64,000 nt of DNA from Dictyostelium discoideum (taxonomy: Eukaryota): positions 4,512,001 through 4,576,000 of the forward strand of contig CM000152.2 in assembly GCA_000004695.1 (NCBI GenBank), written 5' to 3'. A program made the translations under genes and the position numbers. This document shows, piece by piece, positions 3,897 through 56,006 of the stretch. The notes under the pieces were generated by a model that was not told where the DNA came from, did not search any database, and was given only the letters and a program-made list of their open reading frames with translations. How positions within the stretch are numbered: position 1 is the first letter of the stretch; every line of letters begins with the position of its first letter.

Positions 3897-4131
3897 AATT
3901 TTATATGATTTTGTATTTTTGGGTGCTCAATTTATCAAAACTAAATCCGGATTTAAAAATAAATAAAATTAAATCCTTGTTTAAAAAAATAAAAAATAAA
4001 AAATAAAATAAAAAATAAAAAATATAAAAAATAAAATAAAAAAATAAAAAATATAAAAAATAAAAAATGAATTTTTTTTTTTTTTTTTTTTAATTTTCAT
4101 TTTTTTTAAAAAAATATTAATTTCACACTAA

Positions 4132-4461
4132 ATGATGAACTTCAAATATATTATTAGTATTTTTATTTTTATATTATATGTATGTATTTTATTTTTAAAA
4201 TAAAAAAATAAATAAAAAATATAGAAAAAATAAAAATAAAAAAAAAAAAACTCATTATTTATATTTTAATATAATAGATTAATCTTATTGATGGCGCAAA
4301 AGAATTAACACCATTCATTTATGGTGATAGAATTAGTATGGAATGTAAAGATAACGAAGGGAATTGGAAATTAGGTCCAATTTGTTTAAATGTAATTAAT
4401 AATAATATTTAAATAATAAATAAACAAATAAATTTAAAAAAAAAAAAAAAAGTTTAATATT

Positions 4462-4504
<43 letters not shown>

Positions 4505-4954
4505 CAAAAAAAGCAAAAACAAGAACTTAGTGTATATTATGGCAGAGATGCACCACTTTATTGTGGAATTTATATAGATGAAAAAGAACTTAATAGAATT
4601 AAAGATGTATTAAATAGAAATTGTAGGATAATCCCATTTCTTTCAAAATTACTGTAAAAAAAAAAAAAAAAAAAAAAAAATTATAATTTAATAACTCTCA
4701 ATTATTTTATTTATTTATTTTAATAATTAAAAAAAAAAAAAAAAAAAAAAAGCATCATGGGAATGTAGAATACCAATATCATCAGAAAGTAATACTGATG
4801 ATATTTATATACCACTTTCAATTCAATTATGGGGATATCCTCAAGATGATCATTTAGATATTACAACTCACTATAATTTTATATTTCATGTTGAAAAAGG
4901 TATTATAATTGGTGCAACTTTATATCCAGGTAAGTGATCACATTTTGGAAAAAA

Positions 4955-4994
<40 letters not shown>

Positions 4995-5301
4995 AACTTT
5001 ATAATTATAATTTTTTTTTTTTTTTTTTATAGTTAAAGATAAATTTCAAGATGTTCGTAAGGGTGCAGTATTTACAATTCATGGTGCAATTAAATGGTTT
5101 AATGGAGGTTCTCATGTTGAATTAAATGATTCATTGAAATTAATAAAAGATAATACAAATGATTTTTTAAATAATTTAGATTATTGGATTGTTATCCTTT
5201 GGATTGTTTTATCAATGTTTACATCTTTAATTTTATTTTCATTAATTTATAAATATAAATTAAAACCAAATTTAATAAGAAAATATTTAAAAAATGATTA
5301 G
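4132..5301 (+). CDS. Hypothetical type-I membrane protein, 238 aa, with an N-terminal signal/TM and a C-terminal TM. Five exons: 4132-4179, 4278-4391, 4514-4622, 4753-4929 and 5033-5301.
   Basis: The exons were assembled by hand. Every junction has a GT donor (GTATGT, GTAATT, GTAGGA, GTAAGT) and an AG acceptor, and the phases are consistent. The protein begins MMNFKYIISIFIFILY (hydrophobic), continues ...INLIDGAKELTPFIYGDRISMECKDNEGNWKLGPICLN... and ends ...DYWIVILWIVLSMFTSLILFSLIYKYK (TM) before the stop at 5299-5301. All exons are under 60 aa, so none appears in the ORF track. Confidence 0.5.
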
Positions 5302-5750
5302 GTAAAAAAAAAAAAATAAAAAATAAAAAATAAAAAATAAAAAATTAAAAAATAAAATTAAAAAAAAAAATAAAATTTAAAAAATAAAATTTTAATTTTA
5401 AACCACCATTATTCATCATAATTATAATCATTATCATCATTAATTAAATTAATAACTTGAATAAAATAATTTAAAAAAAAATTAAGAAACAAACCTCTTT
5501 TTTTTTTTTATATATTTTAATTAAATTATAAAAGTGATTGAAAAAAAAAAATTAAAAATAAAATCCTTTATAAATCTTGTGGTTTATTTTTAGACTAAAC
5601 ATAAATCAACAACGATCATGTGCATACTTTGAAAAATTTTCTTTTTATTTTATTTTTTATTTTTTTTTCCAAATTTTTTTTTTTTTTAATTTAATTTTTT
5701 ATTTTTTTATTTTTTAATTTTTTTTTTTTTTTTTTTCGAATGGGGACCCT

Positions 5751-5796
<46 letters not shown>

Positions 5797-6434
5797 TTAT
5801 TAATATATAACATTTATATTTATACAAATATAATAGGTAAATATTGCTATCCATTTTTATTTTTTTTTTTTTTTTTTTATTTTTTTTTTTTTTTTATTTT
5901 TTATTTTTTTTTTTTTTTTATTTTTTATTTTTTTTTTTTTTTTACACTTTTTTAAATATAATATTTTTTTTTTTTTTTTTTTTTTTACACAATTAATTTA
6001 GTTTTCTTAAATTAAATCAAATATTTCTTTATTTTTTACATTATTAAATTGAAAAAAAAAAAAAAAAAAAAAAAAATTTGTATGTTCTTTTTTTGTTTTT
6101 TTTTTTTTTCTCTATTTATTATCAAATAAAAAAAATAAAATAAATAAAAAAAAAATAAAAAAAATAAATAAATAAATAATAAATAAAAAAAAAACCATTT
6201 AGGGGTGGTGTTTGATCAATAGACATCTATTTACCATCGTTGTGATATTAGAAGTCTTAATCAAATTTTTATTTTTTTTTTATTTTTTTTTATTTATTTA
6301 TTTTTAAATTATACATTCGATTGTATAATACACAACTAAATCATTCATATAAATAATCATTTATATTTAATTTTTTAAAAAAAAAATTTTAAAGAAATTT
6401 TTTTTTATTTTATTTTAACACAAACCTCTCACAC

Positions 6435-6497
<63 letters not shown>

Positions 6498-6632
6498 TTT
6501 TAAATCAAAAAAAAAAAAAAAAAAATAATAATAATAATAATAATAAAAATAAAAACCTCAAACACACATATTTACATAACTCAAAACATAACTATTATTT
6601 TTTATTTAATATCACCCAAATCATAATTTTTT

Positions 6633-6677
<45 letters not shown>

Positions 6678-7069
6678 ATTTTTTTTTTTTTTTTTTTGAA
6701 TTTTTTTTTTTTTTAAAAATTTTTATTTTTATTTTTTTTTTTTGCCAACCTAACTAACAGACTAAAAAATAAAAAAAATATAAAAAAAATTAGTTTACTG
6801 TACTATTACCACAAAAACTTTTAGAAAAAGAAACTTTCAAATATATTTTTATTACCATTATTTTTTTTTTTAAAAATTACACTAAAAACTAAAAAAAAAA
6901 AAGTAAGAATAATAATAAAAAAAAAAAACCTGTAAAATTTATAAAAAAACAATATCAACAAAAAAAAAAAAAAAAAAAAAAAAATTATCGTCAATATATA
7001 ATTCCATTTTATTTGTAAAACAATAAAAAAAAAAAGTAAAAAAAAACACAAAACAAAAGAAAATACACA

Positions 7070-8084
7070 ATGTCAAAATTATTAAAATTAGTTATCGTTG
7101 GTGATGGTGGTGTTGGTAAATCGGCACTTACTATTCAATTAACACAAAATCAATTCATTGCTGAATATGATCCAACTATAGGTATGTATTAAAATAATCA
7201 AATAAAATTAAAAGGTTAACAAAAAAAAAAAATAAAAAAATAAAAAAAAATACCAAACATTTTATATTAACCCTTTTTTTTTATTATCATTTTTTTTCTT
7301 TCTTTTACATTTAGAAAACTCTTATCGTAAACAAGTAAACATTGATGAAGAAGTTTACATGTTAGATATTTTAGATACAGCCGGTCAAGAGTATGCATTC
7401 ATTTATTATTTTTTTTATTATTATTTTTTTTTTTGTTTTATTTTTTTATTATTTTTTTTGACCTTTACTAATATTATTTATTTATCAATAATGATCAAAT
7501 CAAATCAAATCAAATCAAATCAAATCAAATCAAATCAAATCAAATCAAATCAAATCAAATCAAATCAAATCAAATCAAATCAAATCAAATCAAATCAAAT
7601 CAAATCAAATCAAATCAAATCAAACCAAATCAATCAAACCAAATACAACCAAATCAATTCTCATCAAATCAAAAAAAAATTTAAAAAATTATAAAATAAC
7701 AGAGAGTATAGCGCTATGAGAGATCAATATATTAGATCAGGTAGAGGATTTTTAATTGTTTACAGTATTATATCAAGAGCAAGTTTTGAAGCTGTTACAA
7801 CATTCCGTGAACAAATTTTAAGAGTTAAGGATCTCTCAACCTATCCTATCGTAATCATTGGAAATAAAGCAGATTTACCAGACAAAGATAGAAAAGTACC
7901 ACCAATGGAGGGTAAGGAGTTAGCAAAAAGTTTTGGTGCACCATTTTTAGAAACATCAGCCAAATCTAGAGTAAACGTTGAAGAGGCCTTCTTTACCCTC
8001 GTTAGAGAAATTAAAAGATGGAATCAAAATCCACAAAACGAAGAGATGCTCCCACCAAAGAAAAGGGGATGTATTATATTGTAA
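7070..8084 (+). CDS. rasC: Ras-subfamily small GTPase, 189 aa, CAAX = CIIL. Three exons: 7070-7181, 7315-7390 and 7703-8084.
   Basis: Assembled protein: [85 protein letters not shown]...NKADL...SAK...CIIL. The G1-G5 boxes and the Ras effector loop are canonical. Length and N-terminus agree with my memory of Dictyostelium RasC. Splice sites are GTATGT/GTATGC...AG with consistent phase. Confidence 0.8.
7496..7660 (+). repeat. (CAAAT)n pentanucleotide microsatellite, about 25 perfect units plus degenerate tail, inside rasC intron 2.
   Basis: Seen directly. The phantom ORF 7359-7694 ([10 protein letters not shown]...) is its translation. Confidence 0.9.
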
Positions 8085-8386
8085 ATTTTAAAAAATAAAA
8101 AAAAAAAACAAACCTACCCATAAAAAAAAAAAAAAAAAAAAAAAATAAAAAATAAAAAAAAAAAAAAAAAAAATAAGAAATAAAATAAAATTTGATCAGA
8201 TATAATAGAATAATTTTATTTTTAGAATTGTTTAATCTCCACCATTGACTAAACACACTAATGTTTGTTGTGTGGGATATTTTTAATTTTCGTATTTTTA
8301 TATTTTTTTTTTTTTTTTAGTTTTTCATTTTTTTTTTTTTTTTTTTTTTAAATTTAATTTCAACACACCATTAGATATTATTTTAT

Positions 8387-10336
<1,950 letters not shown>

Positions 10337-10589: not shown

Positions 10590-10989
10590 TTTTTTTTATA
10601 GTGAGTGAAGAGTGTGTTGAGTGTTGTGATATATTTGTTGAGATTTGTTGGTAGTGTTACAGAGTGAATTGGAGAGTTCCAATTCTTGCGAAATCTCTCA
10701 GTTGTTTGGATATGATAGATTTGTATTTTTTGGCTTGTTTGTTATTTGTGGCTTTTTTTCTTTTCTAATTAGTTTGTGTTTGTTGTTTTTGGTTAATGAA
10801 ATATCCAATTTGAATTTTAAATTTTTTTTTTTTTTTTTAATAACATCACTCAATTTGAGTGTGTTCTAGGAGAGTTTATTTGTAGTTTTTTTTTTTTTAT
10901 ATTTTTTTTTTTTTTATTCTTATTTTTTTATTATTATTATTATTATATTATTATTATTATTATATTATTATTATTATTATTATTGTTAT

Positions 10990-11034
<45 letters not shown>

Positions 11035-11750
11035 GGTAGTTGGTGTTATATGAGCAGTATGGTCTGAAGTGTTCCTCATGAGTTTCGAGTTCCAGTTGTG
11101 ACTGAATTTTTCGAGTCTTCTTTTTATTGATGCGGTCCGATTGATTGACTCTCGGTTATCAGTGCATCTTAGTTCTTGTCGTAGTTGCTTTTCTACTATC
11201 TTTCTTGTTCTATCCCATTCGGCAACTCTCGCTTTTTTGATTTTATGAATTATTTGGTTCTCTGTTATTATTGTAGTGTTATCGTTGAATTTTATTTGGT
11301 TTCTTCTGTACCATATCGATTCCATAATGGCTCCTATCAGATTTGATGAGAATGGTGTGAGTAGTTTTCCGAGAACTTTTTCGCTCCATGGACCGTGGTA
11401 AGTGTTGTTAGAGTCTTTACAGACCTTTTGATAGATTGAGTCGATATCCTGTTTTATTGATTTGCATTCGAAGAAGATGTGCATAGACCACTCTTCTTCT
11501 TTACATGAGTGGCAATTCTCCCCATGGTGTTTTGGAAGTGCCTTGAGTAGATACCTCCATGCTAAGTCTCTTCCTTTGATAGTTGTTATTGATCTGGCTT
11601 CTCTAAATGGTAGAGTTGGGTGATTAATGTTCTTTTGAATCAGTTTTTGACCTGTTGTTGGCTGGTGTTTGTTCCATCCCTTGTATTTTATATCCATCAT
11701 GTTTCTATAGATTACTTTTTGTTTTAGTATTTGGGTTTTGTAGATAATGA
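10590..11750 (-). mobile_element. Tandem 5'-truncated TRE5-like non-LTR retrotransposon fragments upstream of tRNA-Leu. The proximal copy carries an ORF2 C-terminus plus a poly(A) tail; the distal copy is a C-module-like 3' end.
   Basis: The minus-strand ORF 10960-11700 is a non-LTR ORF2 C-terminal region (cysteine-rich ...HHGENCHSCKEEEWSMHIFFECK...). It runs into a poly(A) of about 45 nt (poly-T at 10990-11035 on the plus strand). An AC-rich segment with no coding potential (10600-10880 on minus) ends in a second oligo(A) at 10587-10599. The 5' end lies about 45 bp from the tRNA gene, as expected for TRE5 targeting about 48 bp upstream of tRNA genes. Confidence 0.55.
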
Positions 11751-11793: not shown

Positions 11794-11875
11794 GTAAGCT
11801 TGCCCGAGCTGGTCTAAGGGGTTGCATTAAGGCTGCAATATCATTGATACAAGGGTTCGAATCCCTTAGCTTACA
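11794..11875 (+). tRNA. tRNA-Leu (anticodon AAG), 82 nt, with a long variable arm.
   Basis: Acceptor stem GTAAGCT/AGCTTAC plus discriminator A. D-arm GCCCGAGCTGGTCTAAGGGG. Anticodon stem TTGCA/TGCAA with loop TTAAGGC (U33, AAG, G37). Long variable arm. T-arm AAGGG-TTCGAAT-CCCTT. Closely parallels eukaryotic tRNA-Leu. Confidence 0.85.
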
Positions 11876-13940: not shown

Positions 13941-16900
13941 ATGGAACAATTAAAATTATTACTATGGAACTGCAGAGGTAATCAATCAACCAACGCTAAG
14001 AATAAAACAGAAGAAACGATAAAAAGAATTGGCACTCAATTAGCACTCCTAACTGAAACTAATTTCAATGGATTCAACCACCACAAAACAATGTTCAACT
14101 TTGAAAGAATAGATCATGGTTCAGGTAAAGGAACTGGCATAGCAATAGAAAATAGAGATACAAGAAAAGGCCACATATCAATAAACTTCAAAGACGATGA
14201 TGGTAGAATACTATCAATTAAATACAATTCCTTTAATTCTATCAACATATTATTGATCTATGCTCCAGCGACTATATCTGAAAGAAACACCTTCATAATC
14301 AACTCAAAATCACTGTTTAAAAAATATAATTCAATCAACCATCAAATAATAGCAGGCGACTTCAATAACAACCACGATTGCAACAGCTTCTTCGGTACTG
14401 AATTACGTAAAATAATAGACCAAGACATGCTACTAGATACTGGTATTGAAGAAAACACTCCAACATTTCCAAGATCAATGAAGAGACTAGATAGAATCTA
14501 CTGTCATCCAACACTACTAAACCAAAATTCAAAACTGGTAGTCCACAACACAGTATTTAACAAATCAGATCACTTTCCCATCACAATCACAATACAAACC
14601 AACAGAGAAACAACAACAACAACAACAACCAAATTAGAAAGACTCCCTTGGACATTATGTAAAGAAATTCTCAACAACAAACATATACATGATGGGTTAT
14701 CAGAATTAATCAGTAAGAACAAAGATAAGATCAAATCAGTGGAGGAATGGACGAAATTTAAAAATAATGTCATCAGAGATTATTTTAAAAAAGAACAAAA
14801 CAAAATAAAGAAAGAAAAGAACAAAAGAAAATACGTAATCCACAAATTACTTGGAAATAGTGATATCATTCCAAAGATGAGAAAAGAACTCAATGAAGAA
14901 ATAAGTAGAATATTAGAAGAAGAAAGAAAGGTAAAAGCATGGGATATCAAATTAAAACTCCACCTGCATCAAGAAACACCAAGCAAATACCTCACAAGTA
15001 TCCTTAAATCCAGAGCCAAAGATAAATCAATATTCCAAATAAAAGATAAAGATAATAAGACCATATCAGATAAAGAGAACATAGCAAAAAGATTTGTTGA
15101 ATTCTATCAAGATCAATATGAAGAGAAAGAAGATAACGAAGAAACCCACAAGAAGTTATTAGAAAAATGGGAAGTAGACGTTGATTTAATCAAGAAACTC
15201 GAGATAGACAGACCGATAAGAATACATGAAGTGACCAAAGCAATCAAAACTTCAAGTATCCACAAATCTCCAGGTTTAGACGGTATCAATGCACTATTCT
15301 ACAAGTACCACATCAACTCAATAGCAAGAATATTGACTATAGCTTTCAACGACCTCCTCACAAATAAGAAAGAAATCCCCACAAAATTCAAAGAAGGAGT
15401 AATAACAACAATATTCAAAAAAGGAGATGAACTAAACATTTCAAATAGAAGACCAATCACCCTTCTCAATACAGATTACAAAATTTTAAGCAAAATTCTC
15501 AACAGTAGATTATTAGATATCACCAGTAAAATTATCAACAAATTTCAAAACGGCTTTGTTCCAAACAGGTTCATCCAAGACAATATTCAGATCATGAAGG
15601 AAGTAATAGAAATAAGTAACAAAAGAAAGAACAATACACTCATTACCTTTTACGATTTTAACAAAGCATTCGATTCAATCAGCCACAAGAGTATCACAAG
15701 AACATTAGAGCATATTGGTATCCCCCCAAAATTCACAGCGATCCTACTAAACCTACTCAAAGATACTAAAAACAAAATAAAGATCAACGACTTTTTAGTC
15801 AATGGAATAACAATCAGAACAGGAACAAAACAAGGAGACCCAATATCACCAACAATCTTTGCTCTAGTTTTAGAACCACTTCTAATAGATATCATCAATG
15901 ATAATACAATCAAAGGCTTCACTCTACCAAATTCCAAATCATTAAAACTCACTGCATTTGCTGACGACATAGCAACCTTTACAAACTCCACAGAAGAACT
16001 AATGAAAATTAATACTAAAATCCAAAAGTACTGCTCAGCAACGTCATCATCGTTAAACAAAGAGAAAACAGTAATGATAGCAATAGGAGATAAACCACAC
16101 GATCTACCATTCCAAGAGAGTACAGTCCCAGAAAGATATCTTGGCCTCAATTTCACCAAAACAGGTTTAAATTCAAAATACAACACTTTAATCCAAGAAA
16201 TGAAAAACAATCTAATCAAATGGAAATCACAAGCAATAACGATGAAGGCAAAGATGACAATTCTCAAAACATACGTTCTATCCAAATTAACATACCATCA
16301 ATACATGGATAATCTAAATGAAGAACAAATTGAGGAAATCAATAACATGACCAGATGGTTCTTATTCTCCTCAGTTAAGAATACATATACAGAAGAGAGA
16401 AAATACAAAACTATGATGAAAATAGACAGAGCATATGCAGATTGGAAAGAAGGAGGCATAAAATTATGGGATATAGAACTAAGACATATAGCATTCAAAA
16501 TCTGGTACATGAACAGGCTACTCCATAACAACTACAACAACAACAACAATACCTTACAAGAATGGTACATGGAGCAATTAAGTAGAAAAAAAGCCCACAC
16601 TTCAACCCTCAACGATATGTGCAGACACTGGGGTGTATTCAGAGTCAAATTTTACCAAAACCATCCAAAGATAAATGAACTTCCAGACTGTATAAGAAAC
16701 GACAATGACGAACCACTAAAACTGAAAGAAATTTACGAACTCATGATCAAAGACAGACACCCAACACCAAGAAGAACAGAATGGCAGAAGTTATGGGCGG
16801 TGAGATACAACACAGCAATACCCAAAGTATTCATAAACATCAACAGCATTTCTCACCAAAAAGGTAGAAACACCCTCTTCAGATTCTTCTCAAGATCACT

Positions 16901-17384
16901 TCCAGGTATCAACCACGAAAGAGACACCAGATGCAAGATCTGTGGCCACCTATTCAGAGACCCTTATTCTCACCTCTTCACTCTATGCCAAGATATCCTA
17001 GATATTGAAAAAACCATCATATCAACAGTTAACAAATTATCATTCATCAAAATCCACAGATGGTCAATGGATACCTTAGACATATCAAAATACAACAGAA
17101 CTGAGAGAATCTTCCCCAATCTCATAGGAATAATAGCACACCAATTATGGAAGATAATCTGTCACAAATTGTTCAACACTGATGAAAGCAAACCAGAGCC
17201 AAAATTCGAACAAAAGGTCATAGAAACAGAATTACTAAATCTCATCGAAACTGAAAAATTCATCACACTAAAGAAAATCAAACACGACGAAGCAATACTA
17301 AAAAATACAAATCAAGATCTTCACAAATACAAATTCAACAAAGCCTGGCAAACCCCAGCAGCTCCGAACCCTCTTCCAATTTAA
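13941..17384 (+). CDS. Non-LTR retrotransposon ORF2 (endonuclease plus reverse transcriptase), 1147 aa, apparently intact.
   Basis: Uninterrupted ORF in the track with EN and RT motifs as above. The FADD box stands in for YXDD. Confidence 0.8.
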   Translation: MEQLKLLLWNCRGNQSTNAKNKTEETIKRIGTQLALLTETNFNGFNHHKTMFNFERIDHGSGKGTGIAIENRDTRKGHISINFKDDDGRILSIKYNSFNSINILLIYAPATISERNTFIINSKSLFKKYNSINHQIIAGDFNNNHDCNSFFGTELRKIIDQDMLLDTGIEENTPTFPRSMKRLDRIYCHPTLLNQNSKLVVHNTVFNKSDHFPITITIQTNRETTTTTTTKLERLPWTLCKEILNNKHIHDGLSELISKNKDKIKSVEEWTKFKNNVIRDYFKKEQNKIKKEKNKRKYVIHKLLGNSDIIPKMRKELNEEISRILEEERKVKAWDIKLKLHLHQETPSKYLTSILKSRAKDKSIFQIKDKDNKTISDKENIAKRFVEFYQDQYEEKEDNEETHKKLLEKWEVDVDLIKKLEIDRPIRIHEVTKAIKTSSIHKSPGLDGINALFYKYHINSIARILTIAFNDLLTNKKEIPTKFKEGVITTIFKKGDELNISNRRPITLLNTDYKILSKILNSRLLDITSKIINKFQNGFVPNRFIQDNIQIMKEVIEISNKRKNNTLITFYDFNKAFDSISHKSITRTLEHIGIPPKFTAILLNLLKDTKNKIKINDFLVNGITIRTGTKQGDPISPTIFALVLEPLLIDIINDNTIKGFTLPNSKSLKLTAFADDIATFTNSTEELMKINTKIQKYCSATSSSLNKEKTVMIAIGDKPHDLPFQESTVPERYLGLNFTKTGLNSKYNTLIQEMKNNLIKWKSQAITMKAKMTILKTYVLSKLTYHQYMDNLNEEQIEEINNMTRWFLFSSVKNTYTEERKYKTMMKIDRAYADWKEGGIKLWDIELRHIAFKIWYMNRLLHNNYNNNNNTLQEWYMEQLSRKKAHTSTLNDMCRHWGVFRVKFYQNHPKINELPDCIRNDNDEPLKLKEIYELMIKDRHPTPRRTEWQKLWAVRYNTAIPKVFININSISHQKGRNTLFRFFSRSLPGINHERDTRCKICGHLFRDPYSHLFTLCQDILDIEKTIISTVNKLSFIKIHRWSMDTLDISKYNRTERIFPNLIGIIAHQLWKIICHKLFNTDESKPEPKFEQKVIETELLNLIETEKFITLKKIKHDEAILKNTNQDLHKYKFNKAWQTPAAPNPLPI

Positions 17385-17389
17385 GTAGT

Positions 17390-17450
<61 letters not shown>

Positions 17451-17754
17451 ATATAGTTTAAAAAATTTAATACAATTGAATAATAATAATAAAACCTTTT
17501 AACAAACACCGCTGAAAAGACACAAGGACATTCCTTGAAGGTCTGATCACAGGTAAAAAAAAAAAAAAACACCGCTTTTAGGTAAAAAAAAAAAAAAAGT
17601 TATAATATATAAATAAAAACGTAAAACTGATTTTTCGAAAAACGAAAAATTGTTTTTATATTTTATTTTTATTTTTTATTTTCGGTTTTAACAAACCGAA
17701 CTTCGTAAAGTACCAAAATACTTTACAATCCATATTTAATTTTCATTTTGCAGA

Positions 17755-18330
17755 AAACGCACATGTCCCATGCCAAAATTAATATGGCTGCTGAAATTAA
17801 TATGGTAATTTTGGCATGGGACTTATGTCTGCTAGAATTACCACATTAATTTCAGCAGCCATATTAATTTTGGCATGCACAGACCAACTATTTTAGGCTG
17901 AAATTAATATGGCTGCCGAAATTAATATGGTAATTTTGGGCATAGAAAAATAAAAAAAAAACTCAAAGTCATTTAATTAATAATCATCTCAAATATAAAA
18001 GAATTAAAAATAATAAAAAAAAACTCATGGGATTAATTACAGTAACAATACTGATGACAAGAATAATTATAAAATAAAAAAAAAAAAAAAATCTTTTTTT
18101 ATCTTTTTATTTTTATTTCTTATTTATTTTCATGTGTTCAAAAAAAGTGGTGGTTTAAAACAATTTATTTAATTTTAAACTGTATGATTGTTTAAACAAT
18201 TTCGAAATAAGTTTCTTTAAAGAAATTCTGTATTTCTTTTTTTTATTTTATTTTATTTCATTTCATTCTATTTTTTTTTTTTTATTTTTTTTATTTTTTT
18301 ATTTTTTTATTTTTTTTTTGTATATTTAAG

Positions 18331-18424
<94 letters not shown>

Positions 18425-18426
18425 TA

Positions 18427-18470
<44 letters not shown>

Positions 18471-19575
18471 ATTACTATTATTTAATTGACCGAAGGGATA
18501 TCTTTTACTTTTTTTTTATATATAATTGTTCGAAACTTTAAAAAATAAAATAAAAAAAAAAAATTAAAAAAAAAAATATAAAAAAAAAATTAAAAAAATT
18601 AAAAAGTATTTTTTTTTTTTATTTTTTTATTTTTCCACCCGAAGATGTCGCTTTTTTGGAATTTAAAGATGTTGAATTCAATCAAAGTGATGAATTTGGT
18701 GTATTATTTAACGAAGTTACTATTGATAAAAATGATTTGAAGTACAAAGTAAATGTTGAATTTAGAGAGGCGGAGACAAGTAAAATAAATTGCAAAGGGA
18801 TATCGAAATAACCAAAAGAAAATCAACAGATGACCTAGTTGAAAAAGCAATCGAGCACTCTACCACCGAAGTTAGATCAACACATGAAGCTGCAACAACT
18901 TCCAATAATGGTGGAATCACAACTCAATCAAACAAAAACAAAACGGGTAAAAAAAGAGCTAATCAATTACAATCTGATGCTGATTTTACCAAAAGATTTT
19001 CAAACGAAACTTCATCTGTTAGTAACAAAAGAGAAAGTAGAAGAGTCAATAATTAAAATAAAAAATTAAAAAAAAAAAATTATTTTAATTTTTTTTTTTT
19101 TTTTTTTTTTTTATTTTTAATTTTTTTTTTTATTTTTAATTTTTTTTTTTGTGAGCCGTGGACATAAATGAATAATAAAAAAATATATCAACTAAAAAAA
19201 AAAGAAATGAAAATAAATTATAAAATTAATAATAAAAATAAAAAGATAAAAATAAATAAAAGATATAAATAAAATAATATGAAAATTTTTTTTTTTTTTT
19301 TTTTTATTATTATAATTATTATAATAAAAATAATAATAATAATAATTTTAGTACTAAAATTTTGTTTATATTTGAGATGATTATTAATTAAATGACTTTG
19401 ACTTTTTTTTTTTTTCTATGCCAAAATTACCATATTAATTTTGGCAGCTATGTACATGCTGAAATTAATATGGCTGCTGAAATTAATACGGTAATTTTGG
19501 CAGACATAAGTCCCATGCCAAAATTAATATAGCTGCTGAAATTAATATGGTAATTTTGGCATGGGACACGCACAA
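17755..19575. mobile_element. Foldback or TIR-type hairpin-forming element: arms of about 200 bp (17755-18010 and 19365-19575) in inverted orientation. Each arm is itself built of perfect palindromes. The spacer is about 1.35 kb.
   Basis: The reverse complement of 17893-17990 matches 19371-19470. Each arm contains self-complementary units such as ccaaaattaatatggctgctgaaattaatatggtaattttgg, which equals its own reverse complement, and gcatgggac...gtcccatgc. The spacer holds (ATT)n at 18340-18475 and small ORFs (18640-19056) of unknown meaning. The structure resembles what I recall of Dictyostelium thug/hairpin repeats. It sits between a TRE3 tail and a TRE fragment. Confidence 0.45.
18340..18475. 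repeat. (ATT)n microsatellite of about 45 units, non-coding, inside the foldback element spacer.
   Basis: Seen directly. Confidence 0.9.
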
Positions 19576-20078
19576 TATAAAAAATACAGGTTCAACTGGA
19601 ATTATATAAACACAAATCTTGACCTAGTCAGAACACATGCATATTGGAACTTAATCTCATTAGTTATTCACCAAATATGGATATGGTTATGCAAATCATT
19701 ATTTGACATCAATATAACTCAATCAATTGACAATTGGAACAACCAAATAAACAACACAACACTAGATTATGATATATTAAAATCAAAATGGCACAAGCTA
19801 ATAAGATTGGAATATTCAAGAACATTATCAAACTTTAACCAATACTCAATTAAAAACAACCTCACAAAAACTCAAAAAGAAACCCAATGGTCCGAAACCA
19901 TCAAAAAATTTAAAAAAGAATGGAGCATAAACACAAATGAACCAATTCCAACAATTACACCACCAATTAATTATTAATTACCTAATCTAAAATAACATAC
20001 CATTTTAAATTCACAAAAACTAAAAAACCTAAAATAAATAAATAAAAATAACATACTACAATAGTTTATTTATATCAA

Positions 20079-20103
<25 letters not shown>
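19561..20103 (+). mobile_element. 3' fragment of a TRE-type non-LTR retrotransposon: ORF2 C-terminus, 3' UTR and A-tail.
   Basis: ORF 19561-19977 (...HAYWNLISLVIHQIWIWLCKSLF...) followed by a 3' UTR ending in A19 (20085-20103). The reverse complement of 19870-20090 is nearly identical to 55321-55560, next to the tRNA-Arg locus. Confidence 0.6.
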
Positions 20104-20109
<6 letters not shown>

Positions 20110-55299: not shown

Positions 55300-55835
55300 T
55301 AATCAGATTTTTTTTTTTTTTTTGATATAAATAAACTATTGTAGTATACAATTAGTATGTAATTTTTATTTATTTATTTTAGGTTTTTTAGTTTTTGTGA
55401 ATTTAAAATAGTATGTTATTTTAGATTAGGTAATTAATAATTAATTGGTGGTGTAATTGTTGGAATTGGTTCATTAGTGTTTATGCTCCATTCTTTTTTA
55501 AATTTTTTGATGGTTTCGGACCATTGGGTTTCTTTTTGAGTTTTTGTGAGGTTGTTTTTAATTGAGTATTGGTTAAAGTTTGTTTTTTTTTTTTTTTTTT
55601 TAATATTGGATTAACAAGATTGATATATGTCCATCTGTGTTAATACGAGTTTTATTTAATATTTATTTATAGGCTTATCATTTAAGCTGAAGGGTTATTT
55701 TAATCATATGAATTGATCAAAAGATATAATATTTGGGAGAGATGATTCTGGAATACAATAGTAATTAGCTGTTGTTTTTCTTAGCTTGATCGTTGAGGTG
55801 ATTAAAGTTTGATAAAGTATTTAATTAATCAGATA
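55300..55835 (-). mobile_element. Two tandem 3' fragments of TRE3-type non-LTR retrotransposons on the minus strand, downstream of the tRNA-Arg gene. Each ends in poly(A), which reads as poly-T on the plus strand.
   Basis: 55321-55560 is the reverse complement of the 3' end of the 19561-20103 element. 55600-55835 is the reverse complement of 12600-12845. Poly-T tracts at 55305-55322 and 55585-55610 are the A-tails. Orientation and position (3' of a tRNA, 5' end toward the tRNA) fit TRE3 behaviour. Confidence 0.6.
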
Positions 55836-55933: not shown

Positions 55934-56006
55934 CACCCATTGTGGGTCTCGATCCCACGACCTGCAGCTTAGAAGGCTGCCGCAATTCCAACTTTGCTAA
56001 ACGGGC
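55934..56006 (-). tRNA. tRNA-Arg (anticodon UCU), 73 nt.
   Basis: Minus-strand sequence GCCCGTT-TA-GCAA-AGTTGGAA-TTGC-G-GCAGC-CTTCTAA-GCTGC-AGGTC-GTGGG-ATCGAGA-CCCAC-AATGGGT-G. The D, anticodon and T stems are perfect. The acceptor stem has two G-U wobbles (1-72 and 5-68), and the T-loop has A at position 54, which is unusual and makes a slightly degenerate or low-activity copy possible. Confidence 0.6.

Follow-up and report, generated by a model that had tools for sequence, protein, structure and literature searches.

A thug-S copy of Dictyostelium discoideum, its mir-7131 hairpin and a candidate integrase-type origin of the thug family

Introduction

A 64-kilobase (kb) stretch of the Dictyostelium discoideum genome (contig CM000152.2, positions 4,512,001 to 4,576,000; hereafter the window, to which all coordinates refer unless a comparison locus is named) contains a sequence of about 1.8 kb with two inverted arms, and the question is what this sequence is: a mobile element, and if so of which kind, a duplication formed in place, a protein-coding gene or a microRNA (miRNA) gene. 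An earlier reading of the DNA (the original prediction) had described it as a foldback element with perfectly palindromic arms, possibly a thug-type repeat. We conclude that it is very probably a non-autonomous copy of the cut-and-paste transposon thug-S that arose by internal deletion from an element with an rve-fold, IS481-like DD35E transposase, and that it is lodged in a fragment of a TRE3-type retroelement. The locus itself is already known: both the repeat and the miRNA precursor have been described, and they lie in a transposon cluster beside a transfer RNA (tRNA) gene. What the present analysis adds is the exact layout of this copy, together with a candidate for the origin of the thug family and for the superfamily to which it belongs.

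Element limits and mobility

The element was compared with the copies at loci L001, L002, L003, L005 and L009, all of which belong to assemblies of other strains, with AX4 copies not among them. Those in L001–L003 are found at the loci of five D. discoideum proteins that were retrieved with the open reading frame (ORF) of the spacer as the query. The insertion comprises the following features, given in base pairs (bp).

17764–19568, plus strand: complete thug-S element, 1805 bp, TGT...ACA termini, with ends coinciding with those of copies L001 and L002
17758–17763, no strand: left target-site duplication CGCACA, 6 bp, read from the sequence
19569–19574, no strand: right target-site duplication CGCACA, read from the sequence and from the comparison with L004

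The ends read TGTCCCATGCCAAAATTA...TAATTTTGGCATGGGACA, and the first and last bases of the copies at L001 5061–7040 and L002 5981–7545 are identical to window positions 17764 and 19568. Both of these copies are bounded by 6-bp direct repeats (ATTAAC and CATATT) that differ from the CGCACA of the window, and with the TATGGA of a longer relative, L007, a 6-bp duplication was found in all four clean insertions. The empty site is represented by L004, a paralogous TRE3-type copy, which in the DNA alignment reads ...TTTTGCAGAAAACGCACAATATAAAAAATACAGG... with a single CGCACA. Removal of the element and one CGCACA from the window restores an open frame across the junction, and the paralogous retroelement proteins P0006–P0008 run through this junction as ...FHFAENAQYKKYRF.... 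Because identical ends are associated with different 6-bp duplications, and because a paralogous empty site exists, the sequence is a mobile element. It is dispersed and multicopy with conserved ends in D. discoideum, as evidenced by copies L001, L002, L003 and L009 along with L005, which carries the orthologous insertion in another strain assembly at 99.7% identity. Elsewhere in the 64-kb window the arm sequence does not occur, and none of the metagenome contigs scanned contained the terminal hairpin unit (see below).

These results modify the original prediction in two respects. Its limits, 17755–19575, are replaced by the exact element given above, and the supposed position between two TRE fragments resolves into the interruption of a single, 5'-truncated TRE3-type fragment. 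Its proposal of a thug-type repeat or non-autonomous foldback transposon is supported by mir-7131, the probe DM227, the gene model DDB_G0281529, the copies and the duplications. The checks of copy number and target-site duplications that it had suggested yielded three complete copies with the same termini and different 6-bp duplications. Unique arms without duplications, which it had named as the signature of a local event, were not what emerged, since both copies and duplications were found.

Transposase-bearing relatives

The spacer between the arms spans about 1.35 kb and carries a remnant of coding sequence.

18635–19056, plus strand: remnant of a transposase C-terminal tail, about 140 codons, identified by tblastn with P0017 and by its match to P0014, with a GC content of 32% compared with 6–10% in the surrounding spacer

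An exhaustive profile search over 1.84 billion representative proteins found P0014, a protein of 469 residues whose segment 331–467 is 58% identical to the thug-S ORF product P0001. P0014 and its relatives P0016–P0019 contain the Pfam domains rve and rve_3 (rve to E = 1e-16), and the best NCBIfam match of P0014-type proteins is the IS481 family transposase, with E = 1e-23 but below the curated cut-off. Their D, D and E residues align to the catalytic triad of prototype foamy virus integrase, with the spacing D-58-D-35-E. At the DNA level, residues 422–471 of P0017 matched window 18635–18784 with 80% identity in tblastn.

Three longer relatives connect the ends of the element with such transposases. 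In L009, the segment 4074–4531 is 96% identical to window 17764–18212, mir-7131 arm included, and is followed by a transposase gene, after which segment 6906–7094 is 99% identical to window 18646–18833; the L009 ORF is interrupted by about 760 bp (6147–6906) relative to L007. The latter, at 5026–8822 of a D. discoideum locus (GCA_054859355.1), is a complete relative of 3797 bp with termini TGTCCCATGCCAA..., terminal repeats of 123 bp that are 98% identical, a perfect TATGGA duplication and a model for a DD35E transposase of 571 residues, which makes it a candidate active autonomous element. L006 is a 2.6-kb relative from D. cf. discoideum with thug-like terminal repeats. Compared with these longer relatives, the window copy lacks about 1.4 kb, corresponding to the N-terminus and the catalytic core of the transposase.

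A gene model of 615 residues with a P-loop and a weak DUF5906 match (L002 3720–5762) was considered as the autonomous partner and rejected, as no thug ends surround it. This primase-helicase-like model lies 220 bp upstream of the L002 thug-S copy and is probably unrelated.

Architecture of the arms

The arms were mapped by self-BLAST, followed by alignment of the left arm with the reverse-complemented right arm and the arms of L001 and L002. Inner repeats were assigned by alignment to the terminal repeats of L006 and L007. Lengths are in nucleotides (nt).

17764–18005, plus strand: left arm, 242 nt
19358–19568, minus strand: right arm, 211 nt, inverted relative to the left
17764–17781, plus strand: strict terminal inverted repeat, TGTCCCATGCCAAAATTA, 18 bp, with its partner at 19551–19568
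17765–17822, plus strand: left terminal hairpin unit, 58 nt, with a 17-bp stem and a 24-nt loop, -27.8 kcal/mol, z = -6.4
19510–19567, plus strand: right terminal hairpin unit, with 98% direct-repeat identity to the left unit
19419–19502, no strand: long hairpin of the right arm, from the predicted fold
17826–17900, plus strand: inner (ancestral) terminal repeat of the left arm, reading TGTC, a gap of three positions and TGCTAGAATTACC...
19440–19506, minus strand: inner (ancestral) terminal repeat of the right arm, from the same alignment with the longer relatives

In inverted orientation the two arms are about 90% identical, apart from two conserved differences. The shared sequence extends beyond a 24-nt segment to about 240 nt. 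A 24-nt arm motif occurs six times in the window, always within the arms, with zero occurrences expected by chance. The 18-bp terminal repeat is invariant in all six arms of the three aligned copies. The conserved differences are, first, the 24-nt loop of the terminal unit, which has the same top-strand orientation at both ends and is therefore flipped with respect to a mirror image, and second, 28 extra nt in the left arm that are absent from the right. Both recur in the two other complete copies, L001 and L002, and the two asymmetries, being present in three out of three copies, thus go back to a shared ancestor. The possibility that the loop of the terminal hairpin undergoes flip/flop, as in parvoviruses, was considered and dropped, as it has the same orientation in every copy seen. 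This constancy makes the orientation an inherited feature of the family rather than evidence for hairpin resolution at each transposition.

Folding as RNA gave -73.1 kcal/mol for 17764–17880 (z = -14.6) and -73.6 kcal/mol for 19419–19568 (z = -12.2), both against shuffled sequence. The left arm alone has a hairpin, at 17769–17877, whose stem measures about 50 bp. The comparison with the longer relatives revealed how this difference is built. The inner part of each arm corresponds to the ancestral terminal repeat minus 3 nt, and the outer 59 nt of each arm are an additional copy of the tip of that same repeat, which is direct in the right arm and inverted in the left. Tandem Repeats Finder reported a 59-nt tandem duplication at 19436–19561, in agreement with the direct copy of the right arm. 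Since the tip copy of the left arm is inverted, that is, head-to-head with the inner repeat, it forms the hairpin of about 50 bp that is the mir-7131 precursor.

The arms that had been predicted at this locus are therefore present in inverted orientation, at 242 and 211 nt, and so are the spacer of about 1.35 kb with small ORFs (at 18635–19056) and the ATT-type microsatellite, which is more precisely a (TTA)n array of 49.7 copies at 18335–18482. The perfectly palindromic nature of the arms did not hold up, and the accompanying remarks on cruciforms, blocked replication and rearrangements gained no support, no test having been aimed at them. The actual structures are the terminal units, the left-arm hairpin and the right-arm hairpin at 19419–19502, and the 42-mer that had been quoted as self-complementary pairs over only 9 + 4 bp around a 14-nt loop (-6.7 kcal/mol, z = -1.3).

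Each arm also contains a T-run followed by CTATG that faces outward to the hairpins, at 17943–17965 (minus strand) and 19400–19418. A T-rich/G start-site motif has been reported for Dictyostelium primary miRNA transcripts (PMC6161686), and the arm motifs, which resemble it, may act as an internal promoter for hairpin transcripts.

Identity as thug-S and the mir-7131 precursor

The identity of the element was assigned through its miRNA and its gene model.

17781–17867, no strand: mir-7131 precursor (Rfam RF03716), the core of hairpin 17769–17877, in which the terminal unit stands head-to-head with the inner ancestral repeat

The RF03716 model matched this segment with 93.8 bits on the plus strand and 93.1 bits on the minus strand, the gathering score being 74. 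No match to the model was reported at the right-arm hairpin (19419–19502), and in L001, L002, L005 and L009 the match is likewise confined to the left arm. The Northern probe DM227 (CCACATTAATTTCAGCAGCCATA) matches positions 17841–17863 exactly. This probe was used by Meier et al. (2016) for a miRNA located in the DNA transposon thug-S, for which they listed six AX4 loci, including one at 4.53 Mb of chromosome 3, and which they placed in an 'intron of thug-S' (PMC4894637). Liao et al. (2018) described multicopy miRNA loci inside thug-S, and the recognition of thug-S as a D. discoideum DNA transposon is credited to Gloeckner et al. (2001) in PMC5633606, PMC4894637 and PMC6161686. Compared via the miRNA and the gene model rather than via a deposited consensus, the window element and thug-S have in common the host D. 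discoideum, the multicopy state, hairpin-forming ends, the thug-S-derived miRNA (mir-7131 / miRNA_can_D3) and AX4 gene models, and no difference was detected. Judged by mir-7131, DM227 and its identity with DDB_G0281529, the sequence at 17764–19568 is an already described thug-S copy. An attempt to assign the strand and the mature species of the miRNA with the help of the S4-table coordinates given by Meier et al. (2016) was discarded as ambiguous, because both strands fold and score alike.

These observations bear on the most serious rival, namely that the locus is primarily the host miRNA gene mir-7131 and that the flanking repeats are incidental. The Rfam match exceeds the gathering score, and small RNAs dependent on the miRNA-processing machinery (DrnB/RbdB) have been reported from thug-S loci. 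Yet the hairpin is built of transposon ends and travels with the element, and the related elements L006, L007 and L008 lack mir-7131. Moreover, the small RNAs can equally be explained as a by-product of hairpin transcription or as a silencing signal, and no target is known from the literature covered. We consider this explanation improbable and favour a transposon whose left end became a miRNA precursor.

Spacer and gene model DDB_G0281529

A second rival takes the locus for a genuine host protein-coding gene, DDB_G0281529, whose intron of 1 kb happens to hold a miRNA. The features that concern it are as follows.

18335–18482, no strand: (TTA)n microsatellite, Tandem Repeats Finder, 49.7 copies with 94% matches
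17784–17826, plus strand: 'exon 1' of DDB_G0281529 (MAAEINMVILAWDL), inside the terminal repeat; spliced translation equals P0005
18830–19056, plus strand: 'exon 2' of DDB_G0281529; spliced translation equals P0005

Joining of 17784–17826 to 18830–19056 gives a product of 89 residues identical to P0005, that is, DDB_G0281529. Gene prediction, for AX4 as well as for more recent strain assemblies (P0001–P0005), took MAAEINMVILAWDL as the first exon and connected it, across about 1 kb, with the ORF of the transposase tail. In favour of a gene, the model has canonical GT...AG borders, its 89-residue product is found in public protein sets, the wording 'intron of thug-S' has been used in print (Meier et al. 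2016; PMC4894637) and the ORF bears signs of past coding constraint. Between the ORF copies of L002 and L003, all three indels are multiples of three, and the ratio of nonsynonymous to synonymous differences (pN/pS) is 0.31 over 22 substitutions, a pattern that fits a past of this ORF within a coding gene.

The other observations speak against such a gene. Exon 1 lies within the terminal inverted repeat, and the predicted intron spans 1003 nt, whereas typical Dictyostelium introns are far shorter. The ORF is homologous to a transposase tail, and this homology reaches upstream of the predicted splice acceptor of the gene models, as the match to P0017 includes the PPEDVAFLEFKD stretch, where P0017 reads ...FPPEDVAFLEFKDINFNQSEELGILFND.... 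In the window copy, a 1-nt deletion in an A-run near 18781–18784 splits the ORF into two frames relative to the other copies, and the L002 copy has an in-frame stop. In addition, the exon structure of the thug-S gene models differs in each copy, and no Pfam domain was matched by the spacer ORF. The probability of a host gene is very small, and DDB_G0281529 is most likely a prediction artefact that joins a terminal-repeat peptide to a transposase tail; 'hypothetical proteins' of the P0001–P0005 type are probably artefacts, too.

Alignment of the L001 and L002 copies with the window is broken around the (TTA)n array, and over its whole length the L002 copy has 240 bp less. The greatest variation within the element thus falls in the 5' part of the spacer.

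Classification and comparison with known systems

According to a review, none of the transposases of Dictyostelium DNA transposons resembles known ones. Among integrase-type elements, prokaryotic IS481 mostly generates 6-bp duplications, IS3EU and GingerRoot likewise duplicate 6 bp, and IS481EU has TGT...ACA termini (Kojima 2023, Cerbin et al. 2019; PMC10045372, PMC6839031). The thug family shares with all four an rve-fold DD35E transposase without an HHCC zinc finger, a feature that on the thug side refers to the full-length relatives only. It further has in common with IS481 the best model match of its transposase, with IS3EU, GingerRoot and most IS481 elements the 6-bp duplications, and with IS481EU and a minority of GingerRoot elements the TGT...ACA termini. 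In contrast, IS3EU and most GingerRoot elements end in TA...TA, and IS481EU has duplications of 4, 15 or 25 bp and terminal repeats mostly below 50 bp. Arms of more than 200 bp with a duplicated, hairpin-forming tip are unlike IS3EU, GingerRoot and IS481EU as these have been described. The rve-fold transposase without the HHCC finger, the TGT...ACA ends and the 6-bp duplications would place thug among the integrase-type transposons (IS3EU/GingerRoot/IS481EU-like) and apart from Tdd-4/5.

Tdd-4 and Tdd-5 (Ginger2/TDD superfamily; PMC2836005) deserve separate consideration, as the element might be a miniature derivative moved by their transposase. Host, cut-and-paste mode, long terminal repeats, TG...CA termini and an integrase-related transposase are shared, and the parent transposase inferred here likewise has an rve fold. 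However, Tdd-4/5 duplicate 5 bp, compared with 6 bp in four out of four clean thug-family cases. P0017 and the catalytic core of TDD5 are 28% identical over 93 residues only, and an HHCC finger belongs to the Tdd-4/5 transposase: in the alignment with TDD5, P0017 lacks the upstream H-H-C-C residues of the zinc finger, and no HHCC is visible in the sequences of P0017 and P0018. The best bacterial match of P0017 is IS481. Descent from Tdd-4/5 is, for these reasons, highly unlikely compared with an origin from an IS481-like element. A local inverted duplication or foldback formed in place without mobility, which would suit the single occurrence of the arm sequence in the 64-kb window, retains virtually no probability and is already refuted by copies in other assemblies, which lie at unrelated loci and combine the same ends with 6-bp duplications of their own, and by the uninterrupted target site, with its single CGCACA, of the paralogous retroelement.

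Two further systems have a similar general architecture. In plants and animals, the inverted repeats of miniature inverted-repeat transposable elements (MITEs) give hairpins that are processed into RNAs of about 21 nt. The shared feature is that inverted transposon ends give rise to a long hairpin, but that of thug-S is formed within one arm by the head-to-head tip duplication, and not by arm–arm pairing across the element. Drosophila Foldback (FB) elements have long arms of inverted subrepeats, a variable middle segment and 9-bp duplications. Inverted subrepeat arms around a variable middle are found in both, but the thug-S arms, of about 0.2 kb, derive from an rve-type terminal repeat, and no relation to FB sequences or 9-bp duplications was seen.

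A broader proposal is put forward tentatively, as a possibility to which we assign less than an even chance: thug would belong to the IS3EU/GingerRoot/IS481EU group as a lineage of amoebozoans, by a link not reported before, with apparently intact autonomous copies (for example L007) in wild strains, and mir-7131 would have arisen from the head-to-head tip duplication. Within this proposal, the duplication behind mir-7131 would resemble the abutted-end junctions of IS3/IS481-type circular intermediates. The searchable literature contained no paper tying thug to an integrase-type transposase, but this search excludes the 2001 description and Repbase, so that the novelty of the link is uncertain.

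Proposed history of the element

The most probable origin of the element is a longer, IS481-like transposon. Each arm combines the ancestral terminal repeat with the extra 59-nt tip copy, direct on the right and inverted on the left. Loss of about 1.4 kb from the interior spared the 5' leader, the 3' region, both ends and, of the transposase, some 140 codons at the end of its gene, which are now frameshifted. The element inserted into the 3' region of ORF2 of a 5'-truncated TRE3-type retroelement, duplicating 6 bp (CGCACA). Since only a frameshifted transposase tail remains, the window copy can move only if a relative supplies the transposase, and mobilisation in trans would involve recognition of the shared TGTCCCATGCC... 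ends by the rve-type enzyme of a full-length relative. The hairpin transcript would give rise to small RNAs through DrnB/RbdB, the machinery reported to act on transcripts of thug-S loci. The label of a poorly characterised foldback undersells the element, which very probably derives, by internal deletion, from a transposon of the integrase type that is bounded by terminal inverted repeats.

Several points weigh against this reconstruction. A complete full-length element with the exact thug-S arms was not recovered among the loci fetched: the terminal repeats of L007 agree with those of thug-S only over the initial 13 nt and a block of 67 nt, L006 shows no target-site duplication, and the right end of L009 was not found in the fetched stretch (element 4074–7094). 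Among the protein hits, there was no transposase-bearing copy from the reference strain AX4. The pN/pS estimate is based on very few substitutions. Finally, membership in thug-S follows from indirect links rather than from alignment to the consensus.

Genomic surroundings

The window has a GC content of about 20%, its tRNA genes are flanked by retroelements without long terminal repeats (non-LTR), and all protein matches of its proteins are to D. discoideum. The neighbourhood of the element comprises the following features.

11794–11875: tRNA-Leu(AAG)
10960–11700, minus strand: TRE-like ORF, upstream of tRNA-Leu(AAG)
13941–17384: ORF2, with APE endonuclease and reverse transcriptase domains, of a full-length TRE-type non-LTR element downstream of tRNA-Leu(AAG)
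17393–17448: poly(A) tail of the full-length TRE-type element
approximately 17690–17757: left remainder of the TRE3-type fragment, about 70 nt, which belongs to the host of the insertion and not to the element
19575–20104, plus strand: 3' part of the TRE3-type host fragment, ending in poly(A), assigned with P0006–P0008 and nucleotide alignment to L004

The thug-S copy is found inside one 5'-truncated TRE3-type fragment, just past the poly(A) of the TRE-type element, and the segment 10960–17448 is a transposon cluster beside a tRNA gene, typical for Dictyostelium. The last 270 bp or so of the TRE3-type host (19829–20092) recur at 55308–55582 on the minus strand with 95% identity, near tRNA-Arg(TCT) (55934–56006), and represent a second, more severely 5'-truncated TRE3-type copy.

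The thug copies examined are mostly found among other transposons and not in genes. Genes for tRNA lie within 1–4 kb of other thug copies, at L001 4061–4134 and L006 12237–12309. The segment 5954–8428 of L003 contains nested or diverged thug copies. One terminal hairpin unit there (6041–6867) is split in the loop by an insertion of about 790 bp, and another copy, which has about 83% identity with the window, reaches its end at 8415 beside TCCAAT.

Conclusions

Several 'hypothetical protein' models of AX4 and other strains are explained as artefacts of terminal-repeat and transposase-tail sequence. The thug family gains a candidate transposase, and the mobilisation of thug-S becomes testable. 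The structure of the mir-7131 family follows from the duplication of a transposon end, and this origin bears on the question of whether such RNAs are true miRNAs or self-directed silencing RNAs. If true, the link between thug and IS481-like elements would settle the classification of an orphan family of Dictyostelium transposons.

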